Assembly (NCBI GenBank): GCA_964434115.1 | Contig: CAYSSX010000001.1 | Location: forward strand, 329,459 to 393,458 | DNA length: 64,000 bases | From: an uncultured bacterium | GTDB taxonomy: Bacteria > Omnitrophota > Omnitrophia > Omnitrophales > Aquincolibacteriaceae | Direction: 5' to 3' | In this document: one piece after another, positions 9,361 through 59,496 of the stretch | Numbering within the stretch: position 1 is the first letter of the stretch | Layout of the letters: each line of letters begins with the position of its first letter | Translations under genes and position numbers: made by a program | The notes under the pieces: generated by a model | The model's database searches: none | Told to the model about the DNA's origin: nothing | The model's input: the letters and a program-made list of their open reading frames with translations, nothing else

Positions 9361-10203
9361 TTACGCCGCGGATTCGACGGCTTTGCGGGAAAGGAATTCG
9401 GTGATAAACCGCTGCAAGTTACCGCGGTCAATGGACAGAACGCCGTCTCCGTCCATCTGCAAAAAGGACGGCCCTTCGTACTGGCCGCCCTTCAGAAGCG
9501 CGGCCCAGACTTTCTTCAAAATCTCGGCCCGGTCCTCCGGGTTCTTTTTCAGGCGCTCGGCCGTGCCCGCAAAATGCGAAGTCAGAAGCGCGCCCGAGAG
9601 CATCGCGATGAGCGCCGCGCTTTCAAAGCCGTCATCCGTCCCCGCCTCCCCCAGCAAGGTCACGGCAAAAGCACTGGCGTTACCCTGAAGCCGGGCCGCG
9701 TTCTCGGGGCTTGAAATCACCGGCATGCTTTCACCGTTGGAAAGCGAGAAACGCGCGCGGTAATTTGCCGGGTCATTCAAGGTTTCAAGCGGAATCCCCT
9801 CCGTATCCAGGAGGGACAAATCCATGCGCTTGGAAACGAGCAGGGTTTCAAAGCGCCCTTTCAAGGCCGGGTTTTCCTCGAGCACACGCCCCAAGGCAAT
9901 CTCTTCCCCCGGGACATCCAGAACCGCGCCCAGTTTTTCTGTTTGCAGAACACTTAACGCGTCCACAAACCAGCCCTGCGCAAAAGCCGCAAGGCGGCTG
10001 TCCATTTTAGGAGGCGCGGCCGTTTCCGAAACAGCGGCTTTCTTTTCCGCCGCCAAACGAACGCCTTCAAGTCTCAGCTCCGCGGCCAAATCCTCCAGAC
10101 CGACCTCTTGGACAACCGCGGCAACCCCGGAGGCCACCCTTTGCGACTGATTCGGATTAAAACCGTTTGAAACCAGGCCCTCGGCAAGCTGATGCGCAAG
10201 ATC
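9361..10203 (-). other. Conserved C-terminal module of giant protein 1 (~280 aa, ends ...AVESAA)
   Basis: Homologous to the C-terminus of giant 2: VVQEVGLEDLAAELRLEGVRLAAEKKAAVSE vs VVRTVLEDLALGRNLRREAAAVLAEKAQRQMPAVES, and GTAERLKKNP...FLSRKAVESAA vs TRITAERLKKLS...FSANRLIQSAA. Confidence 0.75.
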
Positions 10204-13200
10204 ACGGAGTTCGGAACGCGGTTCTTCACCCCGCTCCGCGGCAAGGGCCGTAAGACTGGCCAAGGCCGCTGCCGCAGCTTCCCGAAGGTGCTGTTCAGGG
10301 GCTTGCTCGGCCAGATGTGTGAGTTCGTCAAGGATCTCCTGTCTTGTATCCCCTAAAGCCCCAAGGGCAAGAATAGCATCCTCCACAACAAGGAGGTCGA
10401 CGGGATTCTCGTCATCCGTCAAAATTTTCAAAACTGAGGGCGCTGCGCGCACGGCTGCGGGGCCCATGATGGTTAAACCCATGATGGCAAAATTAAGATT
10501 GAGTCCATGCAGACTGGGAGTTTCCAAAACGTGAACGAGTGCGTCCATGCCGAGATCCAAACCGCCTGCCCCCTGAAAACCAATGAGGTGCACTAAATTT
10601 CCATACTCGCCTGGATAGGCTTCGGCCTGCTGAAGCAGTTCCACCATTCTCGGCACCGTGCTATGGGCGAAAAAACGAAACGGCAAAAGTCCTAAAACTC
10701 CCGCAAACCGTGCAGCGTTCGGCGCCATCAAGAGATTGATTTCATTCTGAATGATCTCAGCACGGTTTGGCGCCTGAATAAAGTTCAAATACTCTGCGGC
10801 GTTAAGGCGGTGCATTTCAAGAGGTCCATTTTCTTCAAGTTCCGGATATATGTCCGTGTGCGCTTCCACGAGGACCTCGGAACTGGTGATCGTATCCTCC
10901 TCCAATCCTGTAAAATCTTTCCCTGAAAGGGCACGCGCGCGTGTCACGCCAAGAGCCATCAGAGCAGAAACCAAACGACGGTCCCTTCTCTGACCGCCAT
11001 CCGCTCTCATCCATTGCCTCAGGCCGGACAAAAGCTGGGTACGAAGTCCGGCTTCTTTTGCGAATTCAAAAGAAAGGGCCGGACCCAGGTAAGCGATCCC
11101 AAGCGCGGCCAAAAGGGCATTGGGACGGTATTCGGAATCCAGAAGCGCGCGCGCGTACAGTCCAAGCCCGGTGTCTTCGAGTTCCTGAGGCAGACCCATC
11201 GCCGGATAAGTCGTCCGAATACGGTCGATGAGCGCCGTGATCCGGGCAAAAATTTCCGTATCCGGAAACGTCGAAATTCCCGCGCGCAGCCTTTGCAGGC
11301 TGGCCCGGATTTCTCCAGAGTCTGGCTGAGCGGCCAACGAGGCGCTGAGTGAATCAACCACCATTTCAAGAACCGCTTTTTGGTCTTCCGTAAAAGCAGC
11401 GCGCAGTTCAGAACGGGCCTCGCCTCTTTCGCGGGAAAGTCCAGTCAGGCTATCGAGGGCCCGATCCGCGGCCTGCCTGACACTTTCGCTCCGGGAGTCT
11501 TCGGAAAGGAGCGAAAGCGCTGCCAAAACATTCCTGTTTGTGTTGCCCAGGGCAGCCAAAGCGTCTACGGCGCTCGTCATCAAAGTCTCATCTAAAACAG
11601 CCGCTCCGCTCAGCAAAGGTAAAACCTGAGGCGCAGCTCTTGAAGCTGCGGGACCCGACATCGTCAAAGCTTTTAAAACGTTTCCCAGCAGGCTTGGATT
11701 GTCCCGAGAGTTTTGCAGAATTCGCAGGAGCTCATCCAGCCCCTGATCTATCCCGCCCGCGCCCTGATGCCCAATCAGTTCAATCAAGTGCTGATGAGCA
11801 GCCGGATAAGCTTCGGGATGCTGCAAAAAGAACACAGCAATTGGGACAACCGAGTAAGCAAGAAACCGGTAAGGCGTCAGCTGAAAATGAATTCCAAAAT
11901 TAGCCGGCTGCTCGGCAAGACGGTTCCGGAGGTTCTGCACGGCCACGGAGCGGTCTGGGCGCTGAAAAAAGCGGAGGTAATCAGAAGCTGTCATTGGCGC
12001 CACGCCAAACAGGTTTTCATCGGCGCCTGAGAAACGGCTGCCTGTAAATGCTTCCCTGACAGGGATACCCAGAGCAATCTTTGCCATGACGAAGCGGCGG
12101 TCGACTTCCTGCCCCGCTGTTGCCATCAAAGCATCAAGCCTCTGAAGGAGCTCGCCGCGAAGCCGCGAATCATTTGTAAATTCAAAAGAAAGGGCCGGAC
12201 CCAGGTAAGCGATCCCAAGCGCGGCCAAAAGGACATTGGGACGGTATTCGGAATCCAGAAGCGCGCGCGCGTACAGTCCAAGCCCTGTGTCTTCAAGCTC
12301 TTCAGGCAAAGCCATCGCGGGGTACGTACTGCGGATACGGTCAAGAGCCACCGCCATTCTTGCGAAAATTTCAGAGTCGGGAAAATTTCCAAGCCCATCG
12401 CGCAATCTTTCGAGGCTGGCACGGATTTCTTCAGACCCGGGCTGAGACGCCAGAGAAGCATTGAGCGAATCTGCAACCAGCCCGATGACCGCTTTTTGAT
12501 CCGCCGTAAAAGCAGCTCTGAGTTCAGAGCGGGACAGCTCACCAGAATCCCCCCCCCTCTCTTCCAAAAGCCCCTTTAAAGACGCCAGGGCATTCCTAGA
12601 AAAATAACGCACCGACTCCTGAGTGTCTTTCTCAGCCGCCTCTTTAAGCGCATCGAGTATAAACTCCGATGTGTTTCCGATAGCCCCCAAGGTTTCTGCT
12701 GCAAGGAAACGCACCCCTTCCTCTTCATCGTTCATTCGGCTTTGGAGCACCCGAACAACCTCCAGGGATGCTTTGCTTCCTGCGGGTCCCATGCCCAAAA
12801 TCATTGTCAGGGCCGCTTCTATCATCCCAAGGCTTGAATCCTGGTTCACCAGAATAGAAATGGCCTCATCCAGTCCCCTTTCGACGGAACCAGGACCTGC
12901 CAAGGACAAAAGTTGCAAGAGATGCAGGGGCGCGCCGCGATACAGCGGGGTCTGGGCATGGCTTAATTCGATAATGCCGGCAACTGCTTGCGGGGCCATA
13001 AAGCGGTAGCGGGCGATCTGAAGAATCGCCTCATAATGGTGATCGGCCATTCTAAGCCTTGCGAGTTGCTGCTGAATCCGGCCGCTGCGTTCAGGAGAAA
13101 GAATAAGATTGAACCATTCCTCTTTTTGCAGCTCCCTGAGGCGTGGTCCTGCGGGGTTGAGAAGCGTCTCATCTTCGATGAGCGGCCTTTGATCCGCATT

Positions 13201-16200
13201 AAAGGCGCCGAGAAGATGCTGCTCGGCCGAATCAGTCGCGTTTTCCAGAGAGCCCGAAAACTTTCCAAATGCATGCACACTTTTCAATGGAACACCGAGC
13301 GCCAGCATCGCAGCCATAACGGACCGGTCTTTTCCGTCAGAGTGGGACGCCAAGGATTGAAGCTCCGTCAGAAGCTTTTCCCGAAGCCCAGGAACGGCTG
13401 AAAATTCAAGATCAAGGGCCGGTCCGAGATAAGCAATCCCGTGAGCCCCCAAAAACTGAGTCGGCCGATGCTGCGACATCAAGGAGTCAAGAGCATACTG
13501 GCCGAGCCCCGCGGATTCCATTTCCTGGGGCAGAGGCACCTGCTGGAAATCACTGCGAATCCGGTAAATCAACGCGGTAAATCGTGCAAATATTTCCGCG
13601 TCGGGAAAATCCCTCATACCGGAAATAAGCTCATTGAAACCGGCAACAAGGGCATCAGAGCCCGGCTGATTAGCAATGCCTGACCGAGCCCATTCAGAAA
13701 CCATTGATAAAACCGATTTTTGCTCCAGACTGAAAGCGGCACGAAGTTCAGAACGGTTTTCACTTCCGGGTCCGGGCAAGGCGAGAGGCGGTTCTCCGGA
13801 ATCCGGCAACACCGTAGCTATCGCGCTCCTCCTGCCGCTCAAGGCCTCCCGCTGCTCCTCAAGCGACTGCCGCGTTTTTTCCGCCATGTAATTCTTGAGG
13901 TGTTTCAAGTATTCCGGGTGACGGGTTTTCACGGTTTCCATAAAACCAAAACGGGCATCCGCCTCAATTCCAAGCGCGGCCATAGACTGAACCACGGAGG
14001 CATGGGTCTCCGGGCGGAGCATGGGGATAAGTGCGATCAATTCCATGTCCTCTTCTGGAGACAGTCTCGCGGCCAAAAGCGCGTCGAGCGCCCATTCGAG
14101 ATTTCTTTCGCTCTGGTACAGCGGCCGGGATAAATCGTTTTCATAAAGATCCCCAAGCCAGTGATTGCTCGCCATAGCATGATCTGAAAAGGCCTTTTGA
14201 AACAGTCCCTTCTTTTGCATCGGCGTCAAATACCGGCTCTCCCCGATTGAAATAATGACCACGGGAATTCCCCGCCGGGCCTTGCCGTTAAAAAAATTCA
14301 TCCCCTGCGCTGACAAACTTTGATAAAGACCATAAGCATCGTCCGGACTGAGCGGGATACCTCCGAGCAGCGCCCCCATCTCCGTAATCAAATAGGCGGA
14401 GGTCTCACCCCTGGGTTTAGGAATCTGATGAGTCAGAAGATTCAGGAGGTCCCGGTTAAAGTCTTCGCCCAGCCCCCATCGCGCAAGCCCTCTAAAAACA
14501 TCTTCCATCTCCATCTCCAGGCGATAGGCCCCCTTATAATCTTCCCTTTTAATCCGCCCATAGGCCTGCGCCCATCCGCCGCCCCATTCAAGAAGCTTCT
14601 TTTTCCGGTCTGCAGCGGTAAGCCCCTCTAGCTCCTGAAGAAAATCTGACCGGGTTTCCGACGGCCCCAGTGTACGAACACTTTCCTCATCGATAATCGT
14701 CACGGGCTGTTTCATCTGGTCTGCATAAAGCTGGGCCGCGTGGGGACGCCCCATCCGGGTCATGAGTTCTGCCAAACGCTGAAGTTCACTATCGCCAAGA
14801 TTCAGGCGCGGAATCAAGCGTATATGCCCGGTCCCCGTGGTCCCTTCGAGCCCCCCCATTTCAAAAGCGCTGAGATTCCGGTAACCGGCCGTAATAATTT
14901 CTTCGTTCATTTCGGGTGGAAGCTTGGCCTGGACAAGCGAAAAGAAAAGGTCCTGCGGCGCGTACCCATAAAGGTCGCGGCTGAAAGATTCGGACAGAAG
15001 GTTCCGGTACACCGCAGAACTTTGCGTATAGAAAAGAAAGAGCCCCTTCTTCTGTTCCGGGCTCAGGTTCAGACGCCCGGTCATACGCACGAGCCGCGTG
15101 ACTTCAACGCTGCGCGTGAAGGCCTTTTTCACGGCGCCCAGAATGTCAGAATCCTGCGGCGCCTTGCCAAGAAGTCCAAGGGCCGCTCCATTCACCCGGC
15201 TGTCGGGATCCATAATTCCCAAACTCAAATAGCGGTCCGCGTCCGCGCCCTGAAGCCATTGAGCGCCATTCTCCAGGCCTTTAAAAACCGCCTGCTTGAC
15301 TTCCGGCGGCTGGGCGGCCGAAAGGTAGCCGTCGGCAAAAGCAATACCTGCGGCGTAATCCGAAGCCAAAAGCACTTGCAAGTGGACTTCAATTTGATCC
15401 AGAGAAGGAAGCACACTTTCTATCTCGGAAACTAAAGCCCCCTCCAATCCGCCGGCATGATAGGGCATCAGTTCAGAAGACGCGGCCGTCGAGACTGTCT
15501 GATAATCAGCCCCTCCCGCGGGGGCTTGCCCGGCTTGAGCCGCAGAAACGCCTGCCTTTTCATACTTGGAAAGACGCTCACGGGCCGTGTCATCGATAGG
15601 AATAAGGTCTCTGAAGAAGTTTTCAAACTCAAGGGCTTGACCTTCCGTGAGGCCTCCCGGGTTAAATAAAAGCGGCGGGATGAATTTCTCGAAAGCCTTT
15701 TGTTTGCCCCCCGCGAGAAACGAACCGGCCAAACTCCTCCAGTCATAAAACTGCAGCCCAAACACCTGTCCGCTGGGTCCCAGAAGGCCCGTGGCGCGAA
15801 AAGCACGCACCCTGCCTGAGTCATCCAAAAGTTCCGGAGAGTCATCGTCAAAATAGAACCTCTCCGCGGCCCCTTCTTTAATAATTTGGGCCTTAAAATC
15901 GATTTCGCTCTTATCCTGGAAACGAACCTTGATTTCGCCGGGCTTCCCTTTCACGTCTCCGATTTCACGGAAAAAGCGCAGGATACCGCGGCGGGTCACG
16001 ATCAAATGAAACCCCGCGGAACCGACCGACATCAAATCACCCCGGTATTCGTCCGAGCGAAAACCGTAGGCGCGGCGCTGATAACCGGAAGGGAAAATGT
16101 TATCATCGGGATGGTTATGCAGATTGGAAGAAATCGTGTTTTTTCCGGGAAACATGGCGCTCACACTGCTCTCATTCCCCTTCAAGATCACAATCTGTTC

Positions 16201-19200
16201 GCCCCTGTTAAATAGATTCACTTCAAACGGCAGCTCTGCAATGTTTCTCAGATCCACCAATGTCGGCTGCGGCACATACGCGTAGAACCCCTGATCGTCA
16301 TTTTCTGAAAACTTCTCCAAAACCTGGCGGATCGAAAGCTGATCACCCAAAAAACGCTCGGCTTTGAGAATTTCAGAAGCGCTGCCAACGTGATTTGTGG
16401 AAGCCCTGATCAAATGCTGAAAAACAAGGCGGCGGACGCTGGGGTTGTGGTGCTTCAAAAGCTGACGTACCAGGTCATTCCCTTCGGGCGTGTTATAACG
16501 CAGAATGTTGGGCACAATTTCTTCCCCCCCATTATTGACGAGAAAGGCAGAGGCAACCCCTTCTGCATCAAGACGCCCCAAACGCTGACGGACGTAAGGT
16601 TCGTATCCTTCCGGCAAGCGGCGCGAAAGAAGAAAATAAGCCAGATGCTGGCGGGCGCGCCGGTCGAGCTGGGCATACGTGCCAGGCTGCAGCATAACCT
16701 CCAGAACTGACAGGGAAAATTCCACACCCCGCTCTACATGCTGGTTGAACCAGTGAAGATCCACACTTCCGCTTTTCCTTCTCACATCACGCATGGCGGC
16801 ATTAAACTTGACCCTGTCGACACCTTTCTGAATAACGTTTCCGATCCTGGCCAGAAGGCCGCCCGGCTTCGAAGGCTGTGCCCCCCCCGGCACCATGGCT
16901 CCTTCGCCTGGCCCGGGGACGGCAGGTAATCCAGGCTCATCATCCTGCATAGCCCTTAATTCGGAACGCGGGAAGCCCCCCTTCAGCACGTAAATCTGGG
17001 AAGCCTCGTCGGGATTATGATTCGTGACGGTGACACGGCCGTTTGCATACTGCACTTCAAAGTGCTGCTTCCCGAGCTCCAGGTTAACACGGTTCGGCTT
17101 TATCGCTCTCGGCCTGTGGCCCTGGGCCTGGACGTACAAACGGCCTTCGCTCACGTGAAAACCAATCACCGGATCCGAACCGTAATCAATCCGGAAAGGT
17201 CCGTCGTAAAAAAACTGCAGCTTCCCGCCGTCCCCTTCCACAAAATTTCTAGGCTGCAGCACTAGGCTGTGCTCGGGCTGAACGCTTTCCAGAATTTCGG
17301 AAGCTTCTTGATCATCCGCAAGACTCTGCTCATCCTGGCTGAGAGGTTCCTTGGGGGCCTTTTTCCGGGGCGAAGGCACGAGCCGTTCTTCGACATGAAA
17401 ACCGTTGGTCGACCCCTGGTTTTGTAGAATGACAAAATCCTGCCCTCCCAGAACATCCGTCATCAGCATCAAGTGGCCGGGACGAACAAAGTCCTCGATC
17501 TGGTGCGGGAGCCATCCTTTGGGCGCTGCTGGAGCCTGGGCGGCTTCGGCTTTATCAAGATCAATCGTGATGCGGTCTGCGGCGCCGGGATCGTCCGCCG
17601 CGCTCCGGGAAATCCGCGTGATCTGTGTAATGGTTTCCGGGCGGTCCGGTGAAATCATGTTTGGCAGGTAGTAATTCCTGACCAGGCCGTTTTCGTCCTT
17701 CCAGGAAATCACAACGGCCGACCGGCCATCCCGGATTTCCCCTGATTCATCCAGCTGAGAGGCCGCATCAAGCTGTTCACTTTTGTTTAAAAACAAATCA
17801 AACAGGCCCGGCAGTGAAACATGGCTGGTTTTGCTCCGGTAAATAAAAAGAGGCTGCCCATCATGGATTTCAACATCGTCGAGTTTTCTCCATTTTCCCT
17901 CCCCTTTCTCGTTGGCCAGGAAAACCTCCAAAAGATATTTGGGAGACGCGGCACCCACCAGCGCCCCGCCGGACTGCGAACTTTCACGCTCCGCCTGCAG
18001 GGATTCAGGAAAACGGACCATCCGGAAAGTCAGATTTCCAAGCTGGAACCTTCCCATATCTTCAAATGGGTATGCCCGGGTCTTTTTGAAAAAGAATTCC
18101 GTAACGCCCTTGGAAACAGATCTCGCATAGGTCCTGGAACTAAACCCCGGCACTTTCCCAAAATCCGCGGGGGCGGCAATAAAACGGTAAGACTCAGCCT
18201 CTTCTTCACTGCGCAATTCAGAGCGCAGCGCATCCTGCCCGCGCTTCACGGCCTCACGCAGCGTCGTGATGGGACGAACCTGCAGCGGGATAATACGGTT
18301 GTCGGCGTCGATGGAAAACTCAACGTCCACCGGGTAGCCGAAATAAGCTGAAAAGCCGTCCACAACCGCGGCTACGGCCAGCTGCTGTTCCCGCGTCAAG
18401 GAACTCTGACTCCGAAGCGCTTCGTCGTTTGCAATCACCGCATACCCCCCGGACTCAAAATCCAGGACCACTTTTTCCTGCTTCTGTCCGATATGCTCCC
18501 TCTGAAATTGATACGACTGGCCTTTGGCCGAAGGTTTCGAAATAAGAAAATAATCCGGGTCTTTGACGGTCTGGTCCACAAGGCCTTTGGCAAGACCATG
18601 GGCCGCTTCAATGCGTACCACCGAAAGGTCCCGTGAAGCGGTGTCCGCGCTAAAGGCCGTGCCGGAAGTCTTGGGGTTGATCATTTCGTCGATCAGAATA
18701 CTTTCCGCACCGGAGGCCCAGACATCCCGAACAGCCGCAAAAAGACCGGCTGTCCCGGTCACGTTTAACTTCGTTTCCTTCATTCCCGCCATCGCTTCTT
18801 CTTCACTGTCTTCTTTCAAACCGGACGAACGCACCGCCACAGCCCCCAGAACCCGGAGACGGTTCGCAAGAGAAACGGAAATGGCCTGAGGGAGGTATAT
18901 TGAAAGAAATGAGACGGTGAAATTCCGAAGCAGGTTCACGAGTCCGTCGATCACAACCGGATCCTCGGCAGCGCGCAAAGCATTCAGCGCAGGTTCCAGG
19001 ATTTTCTTTTCCAGATCTTGCTTGATGCCCGCTGCCGTCCTGTCATCTGCTTCGATCAATTTCAAAACAGACTCAATCTGTTTGACGGTGAGATCCCGGT
19101 AGGCCAAAGCTAGAGTCCTTTTGAGATCTTCTTCCAGATCTCCCTGCGTCTTGAACCAGCGTTCATATTCTGCAGGCTGAATCGCGAAGCCCTGGGGCGC

Positions 19201-22200
19201 TTCAACCTGGAAACCGGCCGGGATTTTATTCTGGGATTTCAGGAATTCAATGGCATGCAGGGTTTCCGCGGAGTTGGAGCCTTTGCCGCCCGCAAGAGGG
19301 CGAGAAAAGCGGTCTTTCAAATCGCTTTTCCAGAGAATCCCGAGTCCCTGAAGAGCTTTGACTTCATTTTCCCGCTCACCGCGGAGCGTCAGAGTCCGGC
19401 TTTCGAGTTCCTGCAAATCCCCTGAAAGTCCCATGGCGTCCAAAACCTGATCCGGAGCGCCCACCGCGCCGGCACGCAGAATCAGGGAGCGGTAACTGAG
19501 CAGCATGGATAATTCATGGGCCGGAAACTGGGCAGCACGTGTGAGAAAATCCCGGATCCCGTAAAAAAGGGCCTGGAGATAAATACGAATCTGCCTGTGT
19601 GCCGTTTCGCGGACCGAAACCTTGCCCGCTTCAATTTCTTTGGCCGTAATGCGTCCCTGCCAGGTGCCATTGGCAAGCGCAATCATTCCCTGAAGACTGT
19701 CAGCGCGGGACATAAAACGTTCGACATCAAGGTAGAGTGCATCCAGTCCGGCTGGAGACTGCGCCAGAGGGCTTTTCAACCGGGCGAGAAGATCCGCCAG
19801 CCCCTTTTCAAAATTGTCGACTTCATTTCCCGCGCGCCCCCGCAGAAAATCTTTCACGATTCCCTGGAGATCCTTCCGGTCTCCAAGCGCCTCCATCAGG
19901 CGGCTCAGCGACTCCGGGCTGAGAAGATTGGAATCCAGCAGTTCGTCGAGGATGGCGCGAAAAAGACTTTCACTGTCGAGAGTTTTAAAGAGTTTCTCAA
20001 GCGGCGCAAGATCAATGACCGCCCCTTCCGCAGCCTGCTGTCCCTGGCGCGCGGCCTCATACCCGCTTTGATTTTTCCAATCAAGAAAGGCCTGGAAATC
20101 AGCCAGTGTTTTTCCTCCGGCTTCCCCAGCTTCGGCAATCACATACAGCGTGCCTTCACGGGCATCCAGATAGACAAGATCGCCTTCCCGGATCGTATGG
20201 GTTTTTTGATTGCCTGCCTTCAATTCATAATAGGAAAGGGTCCGGCCTTTGAAGTCGATCTGCGTTTCAGAAGCATAATCGCTGTAACCTTCGAAAGAGA
20301 AACCTTCGGGGGTAATTCTCGCTGTGTTAAAAATACTGCCTGGTTTCCGGTTCTCTCCCGCACGGACGGAACCGTGCGATTGAACACCCCCCGTGGTCAT
20401 AACGATCCCCAGGGAAGCAAAAAGATGAGGATCATCCGTATTGTCCGCGCTTTCCCCGATCCAAAGCGCTCCCCGGAAATCTTCCGGTGAACGTCCTTCC
20501 TTTTTAAAGCGGGCCACTGCCAGCGTCTTTCCCGGCTGCACAGACAGACCGCCGATCGAAAGCGGGCTTACGGCGTGACGGGCCGTGCTTTTCTCAAAAA
20601 GACCTTCCGGGTCAAACACACCTTTTACCTGCGCCACAGAGTTCACGGCTTCCTCGGATGAAACCGAAGCATCCAGCGAGGATTGACCGGGCGCGGTTTC
20701 CACACTGCGCGCTTTCAAAAGTTCCCGGCCCGCATGTGTCTGTCCAAACCCATGAAGTTTCAAAAGCTCCAAAAGCCCTTCGCTGCTGAGATGGTTGCCG
20801 TTCAGTTTGATCCCGCGCGCCCTGTCATACGTCTGTTCCGGAGAATAGAACCGGCCCAGGTACGCGGCACCTCCGTAATAAGCCTGGCTCTCCGGGTCTT
20901 TGATCAGATCAATGGTGAGGTCTTCATAGAGAAGCGGAATCACAATCCTTTCCACTTCATAGCGCCCCACCGACGCAAGCACACGGTGTTCGGCAAACGG
21001 ACGAATCATCAGCGCCAGCGCTGCCGTCTGCCGGGCATCCAGGGAAAGTCCGCCGTCGGCCCCCTCCGGAAAAAGGTTTTGAAGAAGCGCCTCTACCGGT
21101 GAGCGGAGCGCCGCTTCTTGAAAGGACACTGAAAAGCCCAGGGTCCCGCCCGGGGCATAAACGGCTTCACTGCGGTCCGCGGCCTGTTGAAGGCGGCGGC
21201 TGAGCCTGTCGAGAAAACGCTGTCCGGTTCCCTCCAAAGGCACATTAAATTCCTTCCCAACACCTTTCCAGTGGGCAAGGTCCGGACGCGGGGCCTGAAG
21301 CATGAAAGGCACGCCGCTGTCACGGACAAGGAAGCCGTCTTCCGAGAAACGCTCCGCGATTTTTTCAGCCGCCTGACCGGGATTTGTTTTCAGGGAATCT
21401 GTTTCATTGATCCTCAGGTCAAGATCCTTGGTCGAAGTCAGCGCCTGAATCGCAAATTCCAGTTTTTCGATCATCTCGGCCAGAGAGCTGGCATTGGAGT
21501 CTTTATCGAAAGAGGCATCCAGCGTGTAACCGACCTTGCGCACCTTAAACCCCGCAGCCGTGAAGGCCGCGGCGAGAGAATCAATGCGGATATTGCTCCC
21601 CGGCGCGTAATAACTTCCGCTGTCTGTGTAGTTGATAAACAGCCGCCCTGTCTCCTGAACCGGAGCCAGGGAAAGCTGGATGCGCGCGCTGTGCACCCCC
21701 AAAGGAAGGTTGATCAAGGCCCGGTTTTCGGTGGAAAGGATGACGGCATCCTTGACCGGAAAAAGAAGATTGTTGCGGTGGATCAACTGCCCCTTGGCCA
21801 AGGCTACGGCCGCAAGTTTCACCGGAAGCGGATGATTGCTGTCCGGGGCTGAGCGGGCATCCAGATAAGAAAATGGAACGTTCAGCAAAGGTCCCAAAGC
21901 GCCGCCCGTCCCTTTCTGATTGAGCAGAACCGCTCCCTGAGCCGCGCTGCCGTCCGAAGGAAAAAGAGTCGAGAGATTGCGCACGCCTTTTTGGTGAACA
22001 ATATTGACGAGTTCGTGAAAGCTGGTTCCCTTGATCGCATCATAGCGGGCGGTTTCCTTGGCAATGCCGCCCAGGACCTGCTGCTGATACTGACGGTACT
22101 CAGCGTAAGTCACGCCTTTGATCAGGGCCGGATGATCTTTTTCTGTTTGCTCGGCGGGCGTGAGGATAAGCGAGGCTGAAGAACGGGCATCGAGTTCCTG

Positions 22201-25200: not shown

Positions 25201-28200
25201 CCTGACTTTGGATTCCGGAAAAAAGGCGCCTGCCTTTTTTACCAGCTTTTCAAGACGTTCGTGCAAAGCCTGATCGAAGGTGTATTGAACGTGAGCCAGC
25301 GCCCATAACGCGCTTTTAACCCGCCCCGCATCGGTGTTCTGGCCCTGGGTCAGATTCAAGGCTTCCGCTTCTTTAAAGAGGATCTCCAAGGCTTGCTGAT
25401 AATCGTCAGCTTCCGGATCCATGGTTTCAGCCAGGATGCCTAAAGCAACCAGACCGTCGGGGTTCCCTTTCCGGGCAGCTTTCAAAATGACGGCTGGAAA
25501 GTTTTTAACTATGGCCCGGTGCTCCGGAGTGATAGCTTCCCCATAAGCCATGGCCATACTGATCAAATAGGGATTGAATTCCGGCTTGGACGCGGAAAAG
25601 ACTTTCAGGATTGCAGAGAAATCAATAGGCCATCCTGACCCGGGCGGTTCCCCTTTGGCTTTGAGATCTTTGAGAAACTGCGTCTGCTTGTCAGGGGGCA
25701 GGGCAGGAAAGGACGCGGCCATACTCCGGTTCCGGAAATCTACCATTCCTGCCGGAAGATCAGGTTCCGGCTGGGATGCCGCTGTTTGAAAGGCTTTAAG
25801 AATGTCCTCCTTAGAAGGCCCCTCTTCCGCACCTTGACCCGCACTGGAAGCTAAGGTTTGAGTGAACGGCTTTGCGGGAAGAAACTGATAGGGGGGTAAA
25901 GATTTTTCAGACTTTAATTCACTAAGTTCCGCCGTGACATCCCCCGCGATGATGGCCGCAGCTAAAAGCCCTGCCGAAGATCCGTTCTCAGCGAGAGATC
26001 CAATGGCCGCCACAATGGATCCAATAGCGGAGGACCCCTCGGGCACGAGCCCATAAATTTCAGCCAGGCCTTTGACGGCTTCGGGGTTTCCATCCGAGTA
26101 ACCGTTCAGCAGAGCTTGAACAATTTCCTCCATTCGCTGCTCATCGCCGGCATCAAGGCCAAGCTGCCTGCCGATGACTGCCAGCGCTTGGCCGGAATAC
26201 GGTATCCCCAGAATAAAATAATTAAGGATTCGTGCGTATGCCGCATCCCGCTGGCCGCTTTCCAAAGAACTATAGAGTTCCGCGAGTCCCAAAAGGGCTT
26301 CCGATTCATTCGATTGCATCAATTTTGTGTAAGCCGAAGAAAGGTCATCGGGATCACCGGCAATTTGAGCCAAAGCGCCGAGTGCGGCGAGCGAACCCGG
26401 ATATTCCGATTGACTGACTTCATAAACAATTTTTTTAATCGACTCCACTTTCGCACTGCCATTCTCGGCTTTAGCATAAACCTTGGCCATGTGAATCAGT
26501 CCGAAGAACGCTCCCTCTTTAAAATTATCTGCCCAGAGTTTGACGATGTCGTAAACGCTGTCTCTTTGAGCCGGCGAGAGGAACTCAAACAGAATTCCAT
26601 AGGCGTGAACGGCCGCGTTTCCTTCAACCGTGGTTTGACTCAGTTTCGATTTCAGGAGATTGAGAATATCCTGCTGCGCCAGCTCACTCGAAGACGGGTA
26701 AATATGCCCCAAAGCCTCGATTGCGAGCACATCCCCGGCCTGGGCCTTTTCCATAATCTGATTGCGATACTTGTCCCGGAAACCCATAAGAAACTCCTGT
26801 TTGACAAGCTTGTAAAAAACAGGCTTCTTTCCTTGCTCTGGGCCCCATGGAGGTAAAGGCGTCAAAACGTCTTCAGGCGCCTGCGTTCTCAGGGCAAAAG
26901 CCATACTGATCGCAATGCGTGCAGCCCGCTTTGCGGGGAGAACCTCCCCCGCGAGTTTTTCACTCAAGAGCGATGACACCTCGGAGCGTTTGGACACCGG
27001 CAGGGCGGCAAACATTTCCGCGAGGCCGAGCAGTGCCTGTTCCTGACGGGCGCTGAAACTTTCTGACCGGGCCTCAGCCATAACCTTGAGATAGATTCTC
27101 TCGGCCGCTTCAGGGGCATTCGGGGTCAGCCTGGAATAAATCCGGGCGATGCTCCTTATTAAAAAAGGTGCGGCTGCCGAGTTCGAGTCAATGAACCCCC
27201 AAGCATCCGAAAGGTCGGTGTTCTCGCTCGATAATGCAGCCAGGCTGTAGGCAAGCCCCGGAAGGTCTTCGGCTGTACTCATAGCTTGGGTGATTTCCGT
27301 CAGGAGAAAAGCAGGCAAAGCCGAAGGCGGATACTCGTAAAAAACTCCGAGGTAGCGGGCAGCTTCAAGCTGGCCAGTCTTAGAAAGCTCAATCAATCCC
27401 TCGATGAGCTGCTTTTTCTCTTCAGGGTTCAACGCCTCAGAGTCAGCTTCGAAAATATCGGCGAGCGCGTAAAACGCCTCATGCTTCCCCATCTTGGCCT
27501 GCTGAAAAAGATATCCGATGACATCACTGGCATAAATCCCGAGCGAAGAGTAAGCAATCCCCAGCGTGCGGATATTTCCGCTGCTCAGAAGAAGCGCCTG
27601 TGTGGTCGCCGGATTCTCACCCGACGGAAGACCGCCGCGCAGCACCCAGCCAAGGGCCTGCAGTTCGAGATCGTTTTCCTGTAAAGCGCCGGGCTGAACC
27701 TGCGTGTAAGACGACTTCAAATCTTCGATGAACCCACTCCGGAGTTTCTTGAGCTCCGTATAGCCGGGCGGCAGTCCTTCGAAGACCGGATCGTCTTCCG
27801 CGCGGAGTTCAGAACGGGCGGAAGCCGTATCCAAAACAGGCGCATCCGTCCCCGCCATTCTTGTTTGGGCGAGGTCGCTGGCCTGAATCGCGAGTCCTTC
27901 AGGGGTCTGAGTGATCCGGATCATGGGCCCGCCCCAGCGCGAGCCCGGTTCAAGAGCACCTTGCACAGCATCCACGGGACGCGCCGCGGGCCTGAGAAGC
28001 TGCGCAATGTTCTGTTCATTCAAAGTGCCGTTCTGCTCCAGACGCTTTAACTGTTCGATGAACTGTTCGATTTTTTCCAGCGCCGCGCTTGGCCCGCTGT
28101 CCTTGGATTTTGAAATTTCATCGAGAAAGCGCGTGTAAGCGCCGGCTTCGTCAAGCCTCCCCTGCGAGGCCAAGTCACGGAGGATTTGATCACGCCAGCG

Positions 28201-30507: not shown

Positions 30508-30516
30508 GGATTTTTT

Positions 30517-39402: not shown

Positions 39403-39574
39403 AGACCTTTTGGTACCCGTGAATCAAAAGAAACATTCCGCCCATAAAAAAAGACACGAAGCCCAGCATCCCCAGCGTGGGATCCTGCTGCGACCCCGCC
39501 CAAAAAGCCAGCGCGAGAAGAACAAGGCCCGGAATTCCGTAACTCAAAAAAATACGGCCGGCTCCGGGGTTCAT
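39353..39574 (-). CDS. Possible small 2-TM membrane protein
   Basis: Two hydrophobic helices, but it overlaps the start of the BolA ORF. The call is uncertain. Confidence 0.25.
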   Translation of the reverse strand: MNPGAGRIFLSYGIPGLVLLALAFWAGSQQDPTLGMLGFVSFFMGGMFLLIHGYQKVFGPAGKNGDENERSGT

Positions 39575-40422: not shown

Positions 40423-40464
40423 AGTACCCCAAAGAACTCTATTGAAGATTCGGGGCGGAATGAA

Positions 40465-40929: not shown

Positions 40930-41079
40930 AAATAAGCCCCCATTTTGTTTTCATGACGCAGGTCTTTGACGAAGCGTCTGTGTCTTCAAGGATAGAACAT
41001 TATCGGCACGTCCTGCCGCGAACTTTCGCAGGAATTATCTAAACTCTTGGCGCAGCCCGGACGAAAATAAAAAGCCATT

Positions 41080-41922: not shown

Positions 41923-41928
41923 ACCTCT

Positions 41929-42480: not shown

Positions 42481-42516
42481 CGGAAGTCCCGGGGGTTTTG
42501 AACGCTGGGGATTTTA

Positions 42517-43323: not shown

Positions 43324-43332
43324 CGTCTCCGC

Positions 43333-46221: not shown

Positions 46222-46321
46222 AGTGTAGCAGAGGAAAAAGCAAAGGCCATAGGGAGGGCGTAAATTTCCCGATTATGGCGGCCGGAAAAAGGGAGTTATT
46301 TAAGAGGTGAAAAAAAGGCCT

Positions 46322-47374: not shown

Positions 47375-47490
47375 TAATCCTTCGTGTTTTGAAATGAAAG
47401 AAAGCGGATGAAATTGACGCCTATCTTACGGATTGCGGGATTTTTGTAAAGCTTGGGGACAGGCCTCGCGCGGATTCAACACCGCACCCG

Positions 47491-48393
47491 TTAGGCCGCG
47501 CTCTGAATCAAGCGGTTGGCGGAGAACTTGAAGGCTATTTCGAGAACCAGACGCGTGATACGGAGACGGCTCCCCTGCATCTGGAGAATCCCCGGCAGAA
47601 ACTCGGACAGTTTTTTGAGACGTTCCGCCGTGATCCGCGTCTTCCCGTCTTCGGCCAGCATCCGGGAAAGCAGAATCACCACGGGCAGCTCCTCACCGGC
47701 TTCGACTTCCGAAAGGACCGCGCGTCCGGAGAAATCGGAAAGCAGTTCCGCGTCCGGGAGACCGTAGACCAGGGCGCTCCCGAACTCATGCAGGTAACCC
47801 GCCAGGGATGCCGACAAAACCGCCTCGTTCATCTCCACGGGCGTTGCCACGCCCAGACTTCCCGCTTCCTGGAAAAAATCTTTCACGGCCGGGTCCTCCA
47901 TTTCATGCTCGAGCACCATCACCTTGACTTTCGCGGTCAACTGGGAAGGAAACGCGTCCCGGAGGGCTCCGAGTGTTCTTAAATAATTCAGCAGCCCGGC
48001 GCGCGCCTTTTCACTGCGGGGCAGCCGGTAGCCAAAAGCAAAAACGAGTTTCTTGGAAGTGTCCGCGCTCAAAGCCTTACGCACATCCCTTTCAAAACCG
48101 GCGAGCAGTTCCTGATAAAAAGCCGTTTGGGCCGTATCGTAATCGGGGTGCACTTCCTGGACATCCTCGGCCGCGGCCCGCCGTGGTTCCGATCCCGCGC
48201 TGAGAAGACTCGCGTAATGGGGATCCTGTCCCTGCTCACGCAAAGCCGATTCTACGGCCGGCATTTGACGCTGCGCCTTTTCGGCCAGCACGGCGGCTGC
48301 CTCCCGCCGCAGATTTCTTCCAAGGGCCAGGTCTTCAAGAACCGTCCGAACAACGTCCTGAAGCGCCTCGGCGCCGGTGTCTCCGCCGGACAA
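47491..48393 (-). other. Conserved C-terminal module of giant protein 2 (~300 aa, ends ...RLIQSAA)
   Basis: Paralogous to 9361..10203 (see that feature). Confidence 0.75.
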
Positions 48394-51300
48394 GCGCAGT
48401 TCGGAGCGCGCCTTGGCCTGCTCGGATTGCTTTTTCAACGCTTCGTAAATCTCCCGGTGTTCATCCACCAGCAGTTTCAGACTCCCCGAAAGAAGGCCGT
48501 GATAATCCTGGGTCAGGGTTTCAAAAAACGGCATGCTGAAGAAAAATCCCCGGGAAATTTCATCCAGGTTAATCGCCAGAGAAGCCTTTTCCTCATCATC
48601 CAGAATGTAGGCGTAAATCGTGACCCACTCCCGGTTCACCAGCCCGCCCTGAAATGATTCCCGGGGAAAACCGTTGGGCGGCGAAAGCAGAAGCAGCTTT
48701 TCGGGTTTGATTTTCAAACGGATTTCCTCTTCGGTTTCGCGGATCGCGGCCTGAATCCTCGACTCTCCAAGGTTCACGTGTCCGCCGGCCGAGACTTGAA
48801 GTTTTCCCGGCGACATATCTTTATTCATGCTTCTTTCCTGTAAAAAAAGCTTTCCGTTTTTGTCAAACACATAGACCTGCGTGACCGCGTGCCACTCGCC
48901 TTCCTGATGCGCCTTCAGCTTGCTCTGTCCGACAGCCGTAAGAAACTCTCCCGTGGCCGGATCCACGTACTGAAGAATCTCATCCGCGTGCGTGTACAGC
49001 TGATGAAAACTGCGGTCCAAAGTTTCCGTTTCCGGATGATCCGGAAGAGCGCGGAGCTCAGCGCGGCTGGCCTGGGAAAGCGTGCCTCCTGCGGCAATAT
49101 TCGAAACGCTCAAACGCCGGGAATTTCCCCGCTTCGGAACCGGACCGCCGCCCTTGCCCTTGGGCCTTACCACAGCGTTCGGAGAAAGCGCGAGCTCTGT
49201 GATGGTGAAAACACCCTTGGGCGTTTTTCCGGCTTTTTCAATTTCGAAAACCAGTGCGATTTTTGCGGTCTTCACGCCTTTCAAGGGCAAGGAGGAAAGA
49301 TCCAGCACCAAGGCTTCCCCGGGCTTCGGGGCACTGACTTCTAGGGTTCCAAGAACTTTTCCTGCGGGAGAATCGTCACTCAATTCAATCTCGAACTTGT
49401 CCGGAAGCACCGACTCTTTGCTAAATGCGATGCGGAGGGATTTAAAGGCTTCCGCGTCAGCGGCCTTGAAGTTACCGGTAAATCCACTGAAGCGGTTCTT
49501 GTTATCAAGGCTGAAAGCGATCTGGATCGAGCCGTCCGTATTTTTCTTTTCCATGTTATCCGGGGCCTTTTCAAGGTTCGTAAACATCGCAATCCCGGTA
49601 AACGCGGCTAAAAGGTCCAGGTCTTTACGGTTCACGGCCGCGTAGCGCCGGTCAAAGGCCTGAAACTCGGCGGCAATGTCGGGGTAATCTTCCCACTCCG
49701 CCACCACGGCGCGGAGAAACGGCGCTCCAAGCGCTTCAAGAATGAGACCCTGATTCATATAAATGCGTTTTTCGTGATACGGCGCGCCGGTCTTGGGATT
49801 ATAGGAATCCCCAAGCCCCCACAATTCACGGTAACCGTTGCGCTTGGTCACCGCGCGCACAAAGGCCTCAGCATTGTCCACGGATTCCGGGACATCGCTA
49901 AGCAGCGCCAGAAAGGGTCCTGCCGCCACGAGCACCGAGGCATCTTTAAGACCGTAGACAGCATAGGAATCCGCTTTCTCTCCGCTGCCAGGCGCCGACA
50001 CAGCCGCAACGTGCGCTCCTTTTTTGGCCACGGCCCGCGCGGCCTGAAAGTAATTTTTAGAACTGACCGCAAGCACGGCAGGCGAAACCTTGGCCGGGTC
50101 TAAAAACTGCAGGCCTTCGTATTCGGTCCAGGCGGATAAATTGGCGTCTCCATTGCCGATCGGAACATCACCCGCCGTGCCGGCCGCTTCCACCCATTCG
50201 TGACGCAGTTTTTTGAGAACTTCCAGTCCCTGAGCGCGCCGCGTCTTGAAATCCTTTTCCGGGTCGCCAAGGACTTCCGGCATCAAGAAGAAATCCCTGG
50301 CCTCCGTATGACGGTTATCAATAAAGGATTCGTTCAGAGTCAGGCTTTTATCTGCCGGATTCACAAACACCTGGCTGCGGAGCCTGCCCTCTTTATCAAG
50401 AAAGCCGCGGTAGTCCGCCTTGGCAAGCAAGGCTTCGGCTTTTTTCACAATCGTTTCATCTTTAAGGCCGCGCACGTACCCGCCTTTGAAAACTTCGGCA
50501 AGCAATTTTAGCCTTACGTGCGTCAGCGCCATATCGTAGGCCGCATAAGCCACACCTGTCTGGCCTTCTTTGCCGGGGATTTTCATCAGCTCCGTCTTAA
50601 AAGGCTTCGCGGCACCTTCTTTTTCATAAACAAGCGTTTCAGGCAATAGCCCGGTGTTCACGCCGTTGATGCGCAGGCCGAACTGATCCACCATTTTTTC
50701 AAACATCTCAAGCGATTTTGTGATTCTTTCCGTGACCTTTTTGGGATCACTCAGGGCTCCCCGGTCGCCAATGGGAAAATTGGAATGGGACAAAGCCGCG
50801 AGCAGGTCTGCACTCCACATAAACCCGATGTCCGCGGAACGAAGCCATGTTCCCACGGGATTGCGCGGCGCTTCACCCTGGTTGTAGGGCATTCCCACCG
50901 GAGAACGCATGCTCAAAAGACTGATCTGCGTATCGCGGTAAACCGGGCGCAGCGTCATGCGCCGGAGAAACGGATTCACGGGAAGTTTGATCTGACGCGG
51001 CTGATCTGCCGGAGCCTTTTTCTGCTGAGCCGCGGCAGGTCCTGTCATTCCCGTCAAGGCCGAAAGCCCCGTGGCCGTGGCCGATACCCAGCGGATAAAA
51101 TCCCTGCGCGTGGGATCCTGGCCCTGGCTCCTTAACTCCGAACGGTGCGGAAACACTTTACCCAGGACCCAGTCCGGATTTCTCAGGATTCGGGACCGGG
51201 TTTCCTCCAGCCTGCGGCCGGCCGCCGAAAAATGGGCATGAAGATCATTGACCGTCTTCTGCTGCAAAAGTCCGCTTTCATTAAGCACGCCGTGCGACAT

Positions 51301-54300
51301 CAATCCTTGAAGAATCTCAAGCGAGCGCAGGACACTGGCCCTGTCGCGCCGTTCTGTCTGGATCCGCCAGTCCAGAAACTCAAGAATATCTCCCGGGTGA
51401 GCGGGGTTGGAATCATACGTTTCCTCTTCATCGAGACGTTCCAGAAGCCTTAAATACGCAAGCAGTGTCTCGATTTTCTCCTGCGGGACTTCGCTCTCTT
51501 CATACCAGGCGGCGATAAATTCACGAGGCAAAGACTGATAGGGCACCACAGCGTTCAGAAGCGTATTCCAGCGCCTTCCGGTTTTCTCGAGGGTTCTTGC
51601 GATGCGTTCCCGAACCTCTCTCATTTCCCGGACCGATGTAACCACCTGGGCACTGTACTGAAAAAGACCCATAACCAGAAGGACCAAAACTGCCGCGCTG
51701 TAGAATTCAAATCCCTGAACAATCATACTGACTGCCGTAAGCGAAAGGCCTGCGGACAGAGCAAGCCCCGTAAGTAAACCGGGCCGCATGACCTGCACTT
51801 TTAAAAACCGGTCGCGGTCCCTCAGCACGTGCTCCATGGCATCCTGCCACTGATCATCCAGCGTCACGTATGAAAAGTCCTCCCGCTCTGCACGAAGCTC
51901 CGAACGCACAGGCGCTTCTGACGGCAGATCAATCGTGAACACCGTGCCCTCGCCAGTTTTGGTTTCCACGGAGATCTTTCCGCCCAGGCTGTTTTCAATC
52001 GATTCTTTCGTGAGCGCCAAACCAAGACCTGAGCCCCGGCTGCCTTTGGTGGTGAACAACGGTTCAAAAATCCGGGGCAGGACATCCTCGGGGATTCCGG
52101 TGCCGTTATCCCGCACGGTTATGCGGAGCGCAAACTGACTTTCTTCAGAATCCAGGGATTCCATTTTGAGGGTAATGCGGCGGGGGCGTTCCGGCGGGTT
52201 ATCTTCCGTCGCGTGCGCCGCGTTAATCACAAGATTGCGCAGCGCGCGGTAGAGCTCAAGAGGATAGGTCCGGATAAAAACAAAGCTCCGCGTGGTTTCA
52301 CCTTCCACCACGGCCTCCCCCGTGCTCTCAAAACCGGACACAGCATCTCGCAGCAAGGTCAAAGGACGCAGCATTTTAAGCGCTTCAACCTCAAGCCCCA
52401 AGGGCTGCGCGGTGAATTGATAAACCCAAGCCGACTGGGTCACAAGCTGATCTGCCGCTTTCTCGGCCTTCGGGTGGGAAGATTTCCGGATGCGTTCGGC
52501 CTCGACTTGAATTTTATCCGCCGCGAAAAAATCCCGAAGATCCTGAAGGAGCTTGAGAACCACGGCCTCCTTTGCTGGACCCGGATTCATGCTGCGGGCC
52601 GATGAATACCGCGATTTGAGAGAGGCGTAAGGCTTATAGAAATCCGTTCCCATCACTTCTTCGACCTTGGAAGCGTTCAAAGGATCAATTGTCGAATCCA
52701 CCAGCTCCAGCAGAGACATAATGTTTCCAAGCTCATGAAGGATTTGCCCGCTCGGAAGTTCCCCTTCGATTCTCACCAAAGCTTCAAGCGGCGCGGCCTG
52801 CGCTGAATCCGGGTCGCGGATCTCCAGCTCTTCATCAATCCGGAAAGCCAGGTCCTTGGCAAAAGCCTTTTCAGCCTGCGCCGTCAAGGTTCCGTAATTT
52901 CCTAAAATGAACGCGGTCAAAATCATGGAAGCGACATCAAACCCCGCCCCTCTGGCCAAGGCATTCAAAGCAGTTTCGACGACTTTCGGGTCCGCGTTTT
53001 GATTAAAGATAAGGCTGATGAGCCGGTCCAGCGCCTCCTGGTTCGCGGCAAGCCCCCCAATGGCCCGGACCGCGGAACGCGCCACCTGAATCGTTCCCGG
53101 CTGCCGCAAAATTTCAGACAGCGACGCGAGATCGCCTTCCTTTTCAAAAACCTTGATCAGTCCCATCAGGATCAGCGCGGGCACTTCGTCCTTCCGGGCA
53201 ATCTCCCGCAGAACCGGCAGGGCTTCCGCGCGTTCCGCCGCGGGAAACTCCGCGAGTGTGCGGATCGCGGCGTAGCGGACTTTTTCGCTGGGGTGAATAA
53301 GCCCAAAAATAACCACTTCGAACAGCGTGTGATGAAGCTTGAGAGGGTTTTCACCGGACAAGACAAAACCGATCCGGTCCATCAGGCGGACAAGACTCCT
53401 TTCCACCCGGGGCCCGTCGCTCATCTGCCAATCATCCAGGTCTCTGACCATCGGGCCTTCTTTGATATTTTTCGGAACAAAGGTTTCATAAATCGTCAGG
53501 TGATCAAAAACTTCTTCGTCCTGACTCACCGCGTCATTCAGCGCGCTGACACGCCTCACGATTTCCGGATCCGTAATGTCGTCGCCTTCTTCCGCGGCCT
53601 TCCGGGCAAGCTCAATCAAATGCTGATTCCGGTCCTGCTCCGAGCGAAGTTCGGAGCGGGGCTTGGGCGTCTCGTCTCTCGGAAATACCTGCAGGCCGGA
53701 CGCCCGCGTGTCAGAAGAAAACTGCATTCTCTGCAGGTCCACGGTCATTCCCTGGATCTGACCATCCGGGTAGCGCACAAGACTGCGGACGCCGTTTTTT
53801 CCAAGGCGCCGGATAAGGGACCTGTGAAAGGCCTGGGCTTCGGGCGTTTTGTCGATGCCCCACTCCCCGCGGTTATTCACCGGACCGATCTGAAAAGTTT
53901 TAAACCCCTGATTTTTGAGCATCTGGAAAAGCCGCCGGGCCAAAACTATTCCCAGGCCGCTGCCGCGCAAAGCAGGATTCACGTACAAACCGTTCCCCTG
54001 CAGACTCAAGTTGTGCGTGTCGGCTTGAAAGGCCCAGGCCGCGGCAGGCTGCCCGCCCAGGTACGCGATAAACACATCATTTTCAATGTCCCAGCGAATC
54101 GACCCATCCGGATCCGCGTAACGGTCAAAAAATGCCCAGTCAGAAAAAAGATCGGATTTCTCCGCCCGCCCCAGCACAGGGTAAGGCGCTCTTAACCCGG
54201 CCAAAAAGAAAGGTTCATCCTGCGTAAAATCACTGCCCATCAGGCGGAACTCAACGCCGCTGCCGCGCACCGTTCTGCGCAGGGCCAGCCTTGCCTCTTC

Positions 54301-59496: not shown

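Follow-up and report, generated by a model that had tools for sequence, protein, structure and literature searches.

An Omnitrophota family of giant proteins combines a TIKI-like N-terminal module, a conserved C-terminus and cargo modules that start with R-S-E-x-R

The giant proteins described in Omnitrophota ('Archaeovorins'; West-Roberts et al., 2023; Seymour et al., 2023) exceed 30,000 amino acids (aa; genes >90 kb) or are encoded by open reading frames (ORFs) >20 kb. They have signal peptides or transmembrane segments, and their cargo includes HEAT_2, HATPase_c, PPDK_N, NUDIX and GNAT domains; methyltransferases, glycosyl transferases/hydrolases and SecA-like domains are also characteristic (West-Roberts et al., 2023). 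According to these studies and a 2026 preprint, the N-terminal regions lack identifiable domains, the ORFs are poorly conserved and the cleavage points are not known. The literature also depicts such giants as largely unannotated. Here we describe two giant genes, g1 and g2, that lie 17.7 kb apart on the minus strand of a 64,000-nt stretch of Omnitrophota DNA (contig CAYSSX010000001.1 of assembly GCA_964434115.1, positions 329,459 to 393,458; hereafter the window). Their products share the phylum, the five cargo domains and the signal or transmembrane segments of the described giants, and show no SecA-like, glycosyl transferase/hydrolase or methyltransferase matches in Pfam. They differ in size (6816 and 4001 aa) and in belonging to a family that is defined by a conserved N-terminal module (N-module), a conserved C-terminal module (C-module) and a boundary motif, R-[SA]-E-x-R, unmentioned in those papers. 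This punctuation is the most informative feature of g1 and g2; like their depletion in cysteine, it was absent from the initial annotation of the window. The sequences suggest a reading that we place a little short of an even chance: the proteins may be modular polyproteins that are cut at R-S-E-x-R, with their own N-module as the likely protease, and would thus follow a MARTX-like logic built from unrelated parts.

The analogy to MARTX toxins, drawn in the initial annotation, is apt in that logic. Both are giant proteins with conserved ends and swappable enzymatic modules, and the MARTX effector RRSP shares the TIKI fold with the N-module. An in-built protease cuts the inter-module linkers of MARTX, a step that we infer here. 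In contrast to MARTX, g1 and g2 have no glycine-rich/RTX repeats (no repeat-family Pfam matches), no Peptidase_C80 and no type I secretion system (T1SS) genes; they begin with a Sec signal, their putative protease has another fold and an N-terminal position, and their boundaries carry the strict R-S-E-x-R mark. With no RTX repeats, no C80 protease and no T1SS or other secretion genes among the neighbors of g1 and g2 in the window, the secretion or assembly scaffold proposed at first finds no support; the two proteins carry N-terminal Sec-type signals and would not depend solely on a C-terminal one. Viral and bacterial polyproteins with a cis-acting protease offer a further parallel: one ORF encodes many units, the junctions follow a short consensus, and the putative protease is part of the same chain. 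Our family differs in being cellular, chromosomal and highly paralogous, with free modular turnover and processing that is so far putative. In Rhs/CDI polymorphic toxins, a constant N-terminal body ends in a toxin tip that varies, and an immunity gene lies next to it. This arrangement is not seen in g1 and g2; the comparison to polymorphic toxins made initially fails, since here the C-terminus is a constant part. RTX adhesins and other T1SS substrates resemble g1 and g2 only in a small-residue C-terminus and low cysteine content; the Sec-type N-terminus and the absence of RTX repeats and transporter genes set g1 and g2 apart.

The N-terminal homology of g1 and g2, claimed by eye, is highly significant. 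BLASTP returns a sole significant segment, g1 aa 72-605 versus g2 aa 73-631 (30.6% identity, E=1.8e-55), and all motifs quoted in the initial annotation (LIQDAHAIPEAQ/LLKDAHAVPEAQ, LTALEGV, AGGFH, and WRDQ..R.LA..RL.EAG.YTRFLD) are found in the alignment. Beyond the N-terminus, fragment-wise phmmer detects no g1-g2 similarity at E<0.01, in agreement with the claim that the middles are unrelated. The cargo named there was also recovered: PPDK_N, HEAT_2 and a triplicated module in g1 (Pfam, phmmer), and GNAT, HEAT_2, HATPase_c, NUDIX (Pfam) and five hydrophobic segments in g2. These segments, which comprise the pair listed in Table 1 and further ones at aa 737, 1229 and 1300, were called solely by a Kyte-Doolittle hydropathy scan. 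Thus, g1 and g2 are paralogues in one modular protein family.

This family is very large and essentially Omnitrophota-specific. An exhaustive search with an N-module profile matched 9,902 cluster representatives at E<=1e-3 (6,913 at E<=1e-30), in proteins of up to ~8,000 aa; in nearly all cases the match starts inside the first ~100 residues. Word-indexed searches, in which 8,000 candidates were scored, gave just 10 and 16 relatives and made the family look rare, an impression that the exhaustive search corrected. A scan of GTDB species genomes (one genome per species) yielded 320 related loci. We examined closely the best 150 of the 9,902 matches and the best 79 of the 320 loci; most of these 79 carry the label Candidatus Omnitrophota/Omnitrophica, the others being unclassified metagenome-assembled genomes (MAGs). 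The relative P0062 is likewise assigned to Omnitrophota. Several genomes encode multiple paralogues, at least seven in one MAG. Each member has exactly one N-module, and the first motif directly follows it. Even closely related members differ in their cargo, which is gained and lost at module boundaries. A few family proteins have single blocks in common with g1, and the g2 cargo has almost no relatives among them. The architecture of constant ends and variable cargo, deduced initially from two proteins, is therefore real and holds across the 9,902 representatives.

Family genes often stand in tandem arrays. An upstream ORF that is also motif-rich and ends in -[AS]A was found at L060 (1-9132), L012 (1-6735), L024 (3-9791), L015 (2-9619), L044 (1-6045), L067 (3-9812), L034 (2-9865) and L005 (3-3026).

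R-[SA]-E-L-R occurs seven times in g1 and eight times in g2 (Table 1), where shuffled sequences predict 0.37 and 0.40 copies, and relaxed patterns reveal no further sites in either protein. In 238 family proteins (686,032 residues) we counted 1,222 copies of R-[AS]-E-x-R, or 1.78 versus 0.063 expected per 1000 aa, a 28-fold enrichment. The first copy has a median position of aa 690, where the N-module ends, and neighboring copies are a median of 308 aa apart. The motif comes after a linker rich in Ala, Ser, Pro and Gly and before acidic residues; these flanks are low in information. The motif is not a general feature of the proteome: non-family ORFs at these loci essentially lack it, and the only other motif-rich ORFs there are neighboring family members. 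Nor is it the trace of a DNA repeat or recombination site, because synonymous codons differ across the 15 window sites, which argues that selection acts on the peptide. Within a protein, the fourth residue, x, shows more uniformity than would be expected (0.577 vs 0.399, 20 standard deviations); it is always Leu in g1, g2 and several relatives. The motif drifts by lineage, as would a site that co-evolves with its reader. Two variations were recorded alongside. R-[TP]-E-[LM]-R replaces R-[SA]-E-x-R in L011, L053 and L072 (MAG HK-STAS-OMNI-5). An extra R-S-E-x-R lies in the last 15 residues, 3-5 residues before a terminal -AA, in 19 of 143 complete members (P0023 ...ARAEVRKAA and P0018 ...RSELRIHQAA are examples), g1 and g2 not being among them.

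Comparisons between family members place the motif at the boundaries of evolutionary units. RSELR starts each of the three tandem modules of g1, which by fragment-wise phmmer begin near aa 5348, 5756 and 6129 and match each other with E down to 1e-88; the HEAT_2 match falls in the first of them. The orthologue P0019 is 55% identical to g1 over 5,389 aa, and the sole large indel is the absence of g1 aa 5353-6531, a segment that runs from the motif at 5353 to the one at 6532. The g1 blocks common to P0057 and P0072 stop at the motif at aa 3863, and a block common to g1 and L064 lies roughly between motifs in both proteins. Ahead of the first motif, g1 aa 608-650 are disordered in the N-module model described below (predicted local distance difference test, pLDDT, <50). 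Pfam searches on three motif-rich relatives, run to see whether motifs avoid domains, returned almost no domains. Each cargo module starts with R-[SA]-E-x-R after a linker, and most cargo is unannotated. It is these motif-bounded modules that evolution adds, removes, duplicates and passes between proteins; the family exemplifies domain shuffling in which the junctions carry a visible signal. One unit, g1 aa 671-3862 (window 18226-27801), is a module of ~3,200 aa without an internal motif and without a Pfam match before PPDK_N at its end; only its last ~1,500 aa are common to P0057 and P0072.

An AlphaFold2 (AF2) model of g1 aa 36-650, built from a 45-sequence alignment (pLDDT 87.1, predicted template modelling score 0.79), shows a central parallel β-sheet flanked by helices, the α/β core of the TIKI/TraB/PrgY/GumN/ChaN/Ere superfamily. 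Five residues, D77, H79, E107, R423 and H451 (g1 numbering), are invariant across 83 sequences. Each directly follows a core β-strand in the model, so that all lie at the C-terminal ends of consecutive strands. The 2His/2Glu+Arg catalytic set of RRSP and Bcr135 (PMC6254334) has the same order and nearly the same spacing. In RRSP, E3900-x-H3902, E3930, R4001 and H4030 are essential by mutagenesis, with 28 residues from His to Glu and 29 from Arg to His; H85 and E113 of Bcr135 are likewise 28 residues apart (PMC6254334). Both distances are 28 in the N-module. Compared by order and spacing, it thus carries the catalytic set and the basic residue at strand ends, with Asp in place of the first Glu. 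The initial annotation had tentatively likened the paired His motifs to a Tiki/TraB-type site; this holds for the fold and the active-site residues but not for membership by sequence threshold. The acidic-x-His, Glu, Arg and His at strand ends of a parallel β-sheet are shared with the superfamily, including RRSP and HopBA1. Like TIKI, TraB and PrgY, the N-module is expected from prediction to lie outside the cytoplasm and to be tethered to the membrane. The N-module differs from known members in the Asp, in reaching no family threshold, in being always fused to a modular giant protein, and in a ~250-aa helical insert, particular to this family, that splits the core between the third strand and the Arg helix. 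The superfamily thereby gains a new branch that is very populous and highly divergent.

The C-terminal homology of g1 and g2 proved harder to establish. Pairwise, the by-eye alignment is not significant: when the last 320 aa are compared by Smith-Waterman, z is 1.4 and 29 of 300 shuffles reach the observed score, and BLASTP finds no match between the C-termini at E<=10, which leaves the alignment short of the E threshold set beforehand. Family profiles, in contrast, support it. The distance from the last motif to the protein end has a median of 292 aa (interquartile range 270-307, n=120); in g1 (285 aa) and g2 (305 aa) this stretch corresponds to the terminal ~290 aa of the initial annotation. 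The 29 other complete members looked at first all have Ala as their final residue and Ala or Ser before it, and both g1 and g2 end in -SAA; AA or SA ends occur in 114 of 159 database members, most others being probably truncated at contig ends, and in 9 of 407 control ORFs, a set that includes unverified ORFs. A gap-free helical pattern of hydrophobic positions runs from -22 to about -5 in the 29 members. With a right-anchored position-specific scoring matrix (PSSM) of the tail, g1 scores above 407 of 407 controls (z=5.0) and g2 above all but 2. A hidden Markov model (HMM) built from the final 200 aa of other members matches g1 aa 6697-6816 at 4e-7. For g2, hhalign against a profile of 27 other tails gives a global P=4e-7 (probability 87%) and a local E=5e-4 over the last 60 aa; against a g1-type profile the g2 tail reaches 8.2 bits, equalled by 5 of 1000 shuffles, and BLAST relates it to the C-terminal ends of P0128 and P0088 (E about 1e-11). 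An HMM that covered the final 300 aa found nothing, shorter tail HMMs were weak for g1 and negative for g2, and an iterative search seeded by the g2 tail recruited nothing. Judged from these sequence comparisons, the g2 C-module is a divergent subtype. P0088 and P0128 end in -QMA, not -[AS]A, a hint that they form a distinct subtype of C-module whose terminus is relaxed. The C-terminus is not simply the helical element first described: the AF2 model of the g1 C-module (pLDDT 90.3) shows a mixed α/β domain. P0007, considered as a minimal member with only N- and C-modules, was discarded as such; its tail does not match the C-module profile.

Both g1 and g2 start with a Sec-type signal/anchor, and a hydrophobic 13-mer lies within the first 52 aa in 154 of 167 members with an intact N-terminus. 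g1 and g2 have one cysteine each (aa 18 and aa 20), where ~70 and ~41 would be expected from the 1.02% cysteine content of 20 neighboring genes; both lie inside this signal, so that the mature proteins would have none. The family-wide content is 0.096%, and this depletion suggests a constraint tied to export or to extracytoplasmic life. The 612-aa fragment P0003 has in-frame inserts rich in 'CHSERSE(G/E)S...' at aa ~305-330 and ~425-470, within the helical insert of the N-module; they resemble a translated repeat element and explain its unusual cysteines.

These features are consistent with a model in which the signal/anchor would lead to insertion or export of the chain via Sec, R-S-E-x-R would be the recognition site for cutting it into modules, and the C-module with its invariant small-residue carboxy-terminus would serve a common step such as docking, sorting or turnover. 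The N-module of the same chain would be the most economical protease candidate because its fold includes the sequence-specific endopeptidases TIKI and RRSP (PMC6254334), and the simplest one because there is exactly one per member, directly ahead of the first site. A fuller version, in which Omnitrophota encode thousands of bacterial polyproteins, an N-terminal TIKI-fold endopeptidase cuts its own or sister chains into enzymes after export or insertion by Sec, the -[AS]A end is a second recognition signal and the motif is also the junction for insertion, duplication and exchange of cargo, is possible, though on balance we doubt it.

Several points weigh against self-cleavage by the N-module. 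The cutting step is wholly one that we infer. Topology poses the greatest difficulty: with its signal peptide the N-module should lie outside the cytoplasm, and the cargo includes domains that depend on ATP, coenzyme A and nucleotides; the extra hydrophobic segments predicted in g2 would moreover set several motifs across the membrane from the N-module. The fold and residues point to a hydrolase-like site, not specifically to a peptidase, and the TIKI superfamily also holds esterases (Ere), a haem binder (ChaN) and inactive members (PMT). In Pfam, Erythro_esteras (E=0.079, 13.1 bits) and TraB_PrgY_gumN (E=2.4, 8.4 bits) were hit far below the cut-off and by one member only, a sequence-profile search of the PDB with the N-module gave no match, and Foldseek against the PDB gave nothing significant. 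NCBIfam likewise has no match to the N-module. Some members, P0007 among them, have few or no motifs. RSELR begins the first helix of the C-module model (pLDDT about 80), and a structural capping role is possible. Finally, paralogues within a genome share x weakly (0.221 vs 0.14), a value that neither favors nor excludes an enzyme acting in cis.

The motif could instead be cut or bound in trans, for example by S8/C39 peptidases like those noted on other Omnitrophota giants or by a sorting or modifying enzyme, with the N-module acting on external substrates (such as the envelope or the signalling peptides of host or prey cells) in the manner of extracytoplasmic TIKI/TraB/PrgY proteins. We think this rather unlikely. 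It would account for the presence of R-[SA]-E-L-R at all 15 sites of two proteins that are only 30% identical in the N-module and for the slightly higher agreement of x within than between genomes, and a second, cytoplasmic factor would ease the topology problem; C39/S8-mediated cleavage has been proposed for other giants (West-Roberts et al., 2023). However, no conserved candidate partner gene lies beside family genes, every member has exactly one N-module with its first motif straight after it, and the paralogues of genome SO_2016_GW1_117 differ sharply in x (all A versus S/M/T), which fits a protein-specific determinant. A distinctly unlikely alternative dispenses with cleavage: the proteins would be intact membrane-anchored multi-enzyme scaffolds or a cell coat, and the motif a structural or docking element (helix N-cap with a salt bridge, partner-binding or modification site) copied with its linker. 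S-x-x-E/R patterns resemble helix-capping boxes, the motif does open a helix in the C-module model, and modules duplicate along with it. Yet the same pentapeptide stands on modules that are not homologous and differ in fold, its codons vary from site to site, and its positions 2 and 4 drift by lineage, all of which argue for a recognized short linear motif over a fold-specific cap. Its flanks, moreover, are linker-like and low in information.

It is also conceivable, if very improbable, that the C-terminal amphipathic helix and -[AS]A define the biology of the family as a T1SS-type export signal or as an ssrA/Tsp-type degron or PDZ ligand. The uniform Ala terminus of the 29 complete members, the Ala/Ser before it and the gap-free helical pattern would fit such a signal, as would the near absence of cysteine, a trait of many T1SS and type V secretion system substrates. 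Against this, genes for an ABC exporter, a membrane fusion protein or TolC are missing nearby, the proteins have a Sec signal and no RTX repeats, and the conserved region is a folded domain of ~290 aa and not a short unstructured signal. A C-terminal signal is compatible with cleavage at R-S-E-x-R by the N-module and could be one of its steps.

Neither Seymour et al. (2023) and West-Roberts et al. (2023) nor the 2026 preprint speak of a TIKI-like module, conservation at the C-terminus, a motif at module boundaries or a depletion in cysteine; a full-text literature search for the motif strings returned nothing relevant, and Pfam and NCBIfam hold no model for either module. The features that define the family are thus apparently undescribed in the literature and databases covered. 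For one very large class of giants they amount to a grammar that can be tested, with a conserved protease-fold head, a conserved tail and a strict boundary pentapeptide. This grammar allows computational segmentation into modules for structure prediction and annotation, names key residues (H79, E107, R423, H451 and both motif Arg) and predicts neo-termini for proteomic data. If self-cleavage is real and extends to the giants of 30-150 kaa, their cleavage map could be read directly from sequence.

Table 1. Features of g1 and g2 in window coordinates; aa numbers refer to the respective protein.
Feature	Position	Strand	Description	Basis
g1	9361..29811	-	6816 aa, complete ORF	
g1 Sec-type signal/anchor	29722..29811	-	aa 1-30, ...VPSAQA / QS	sequence
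g1 N-module	27997..29706	-	aa 36-605, TIKI/TraB/Ere-fold α/β core + ~250-aa helical insert	
g1 D77-A-H79	29575..29583	-	first catalytic-type motif, end of core strand	invariant in alignments; strand from AF2 model
g1 E107	29491..29493	-	28 residues past H79	alignments
g1 R423	28543..28545	-	conserved basic residue, FY..A..RD helix	alignments
g1 H451	28459..28461	-	AGGFH, second His motif, 28 residues past R423	alignments
g1 RSELR site 1	27802..27816	-	aa 666, N-module end	
g1 PPDK_N (ATP-grasp)	18241..18702	-	aa ~3704-3857	Pfam
g1 RSELR site 2	18211..18225	-	aa 3863, 6 aa after PPDK_N	
g1 RSELR site 3	16954..16968	-	aa 4282	
g1 tandem homologous modules (three)	10219..13755	-	aa 5353-5760, 5761-6132, 6133-6531	phmmer + RSELR positions
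g1 RSELR sites starting tandem modules	13741-13755, 12517-12531, 11401-11415	-	aa 5353, 5761, 6133	
g1 RSELR last site	10204-10218	-	aa 6532, C-module start	
g1 C-module	9364..10218	-	aa 6532-6816, 285 aa, α/β, ends ...RKAVESAA	AF2, HMM, PSSM
g2	47491..59496	-	4001 aa, complete ORF	
g2 N-module	57604..59391	-	aa 36-631, with D78-A-H80, E108, R447, H475	BLASTP, alignment
g2 RAELR site 1	57445..57459	-	aa 680, N-module end	
g2 RSELR site 2	56833..56847	-	aa 884	
g2 RAELR site 3	54958..54972	-	aa 1509	
g2 GNAT acetyltransferase	53878..54303	-	aa 1732-1873	Pfam
g2 RSELR site 4	53644..53658	-	aa 1947	
g2 HATPase_c	51916..52263	-	aa 2412-2527	Pfam
g2 RSELR site 5	51892..51906	-	aa 2531, 4 aa after HATPase_c	
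g2 hydrophobic segment pair	51649..51774	-	aa 2575-2616	Kyte-Doolittle scan
g2 RSELR site 6	51130..51144	-	aa 2785	
g2 RAELR site 7	49051..49065	-	aa 3478	
g2 NUDIX	48556..48885	-	aa 3538-3647	Pfam
g2 C-module	47494..48408	-	aa 3697-4001, 305 aa, starts RSELR (site 8), ends ...NRLIQSAA	

The genes that flank g1 and g2 are ordinary chromosomal ones: DUF4202, PMT, ABC-F, an RluA-type pseudouridine synthase, a hybrid histidine kinase, response regulators, LOG, ferrochelatase, protoporphyrinogen oxidase, inositol-1-phosphate synthase and PAP2. The sole ABC protein nearby (35356-37140) is of the ABC-F type. No tRNA gene and no Rfam family at the gathering threshold were found in window 1-64000. A conserved partner gene next to family genes was sought at this locus and at the loci of relatives, and none was found: the genes downstream of the giants are PAP2 and DUF1016/SNase here and unrelated housekeeping genes in other genomes. 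The gene directly downstream of g2 (46322-47374, minus strand) encodes a DUF1016 N-terminal domain joined to a staphylococcal-nuclease domain and is not kept beside family genes elsewhere. Within g1, window positions 24001-26000 have a G+C content of 0.503, compared to ~0.55 elsewhere in the window.

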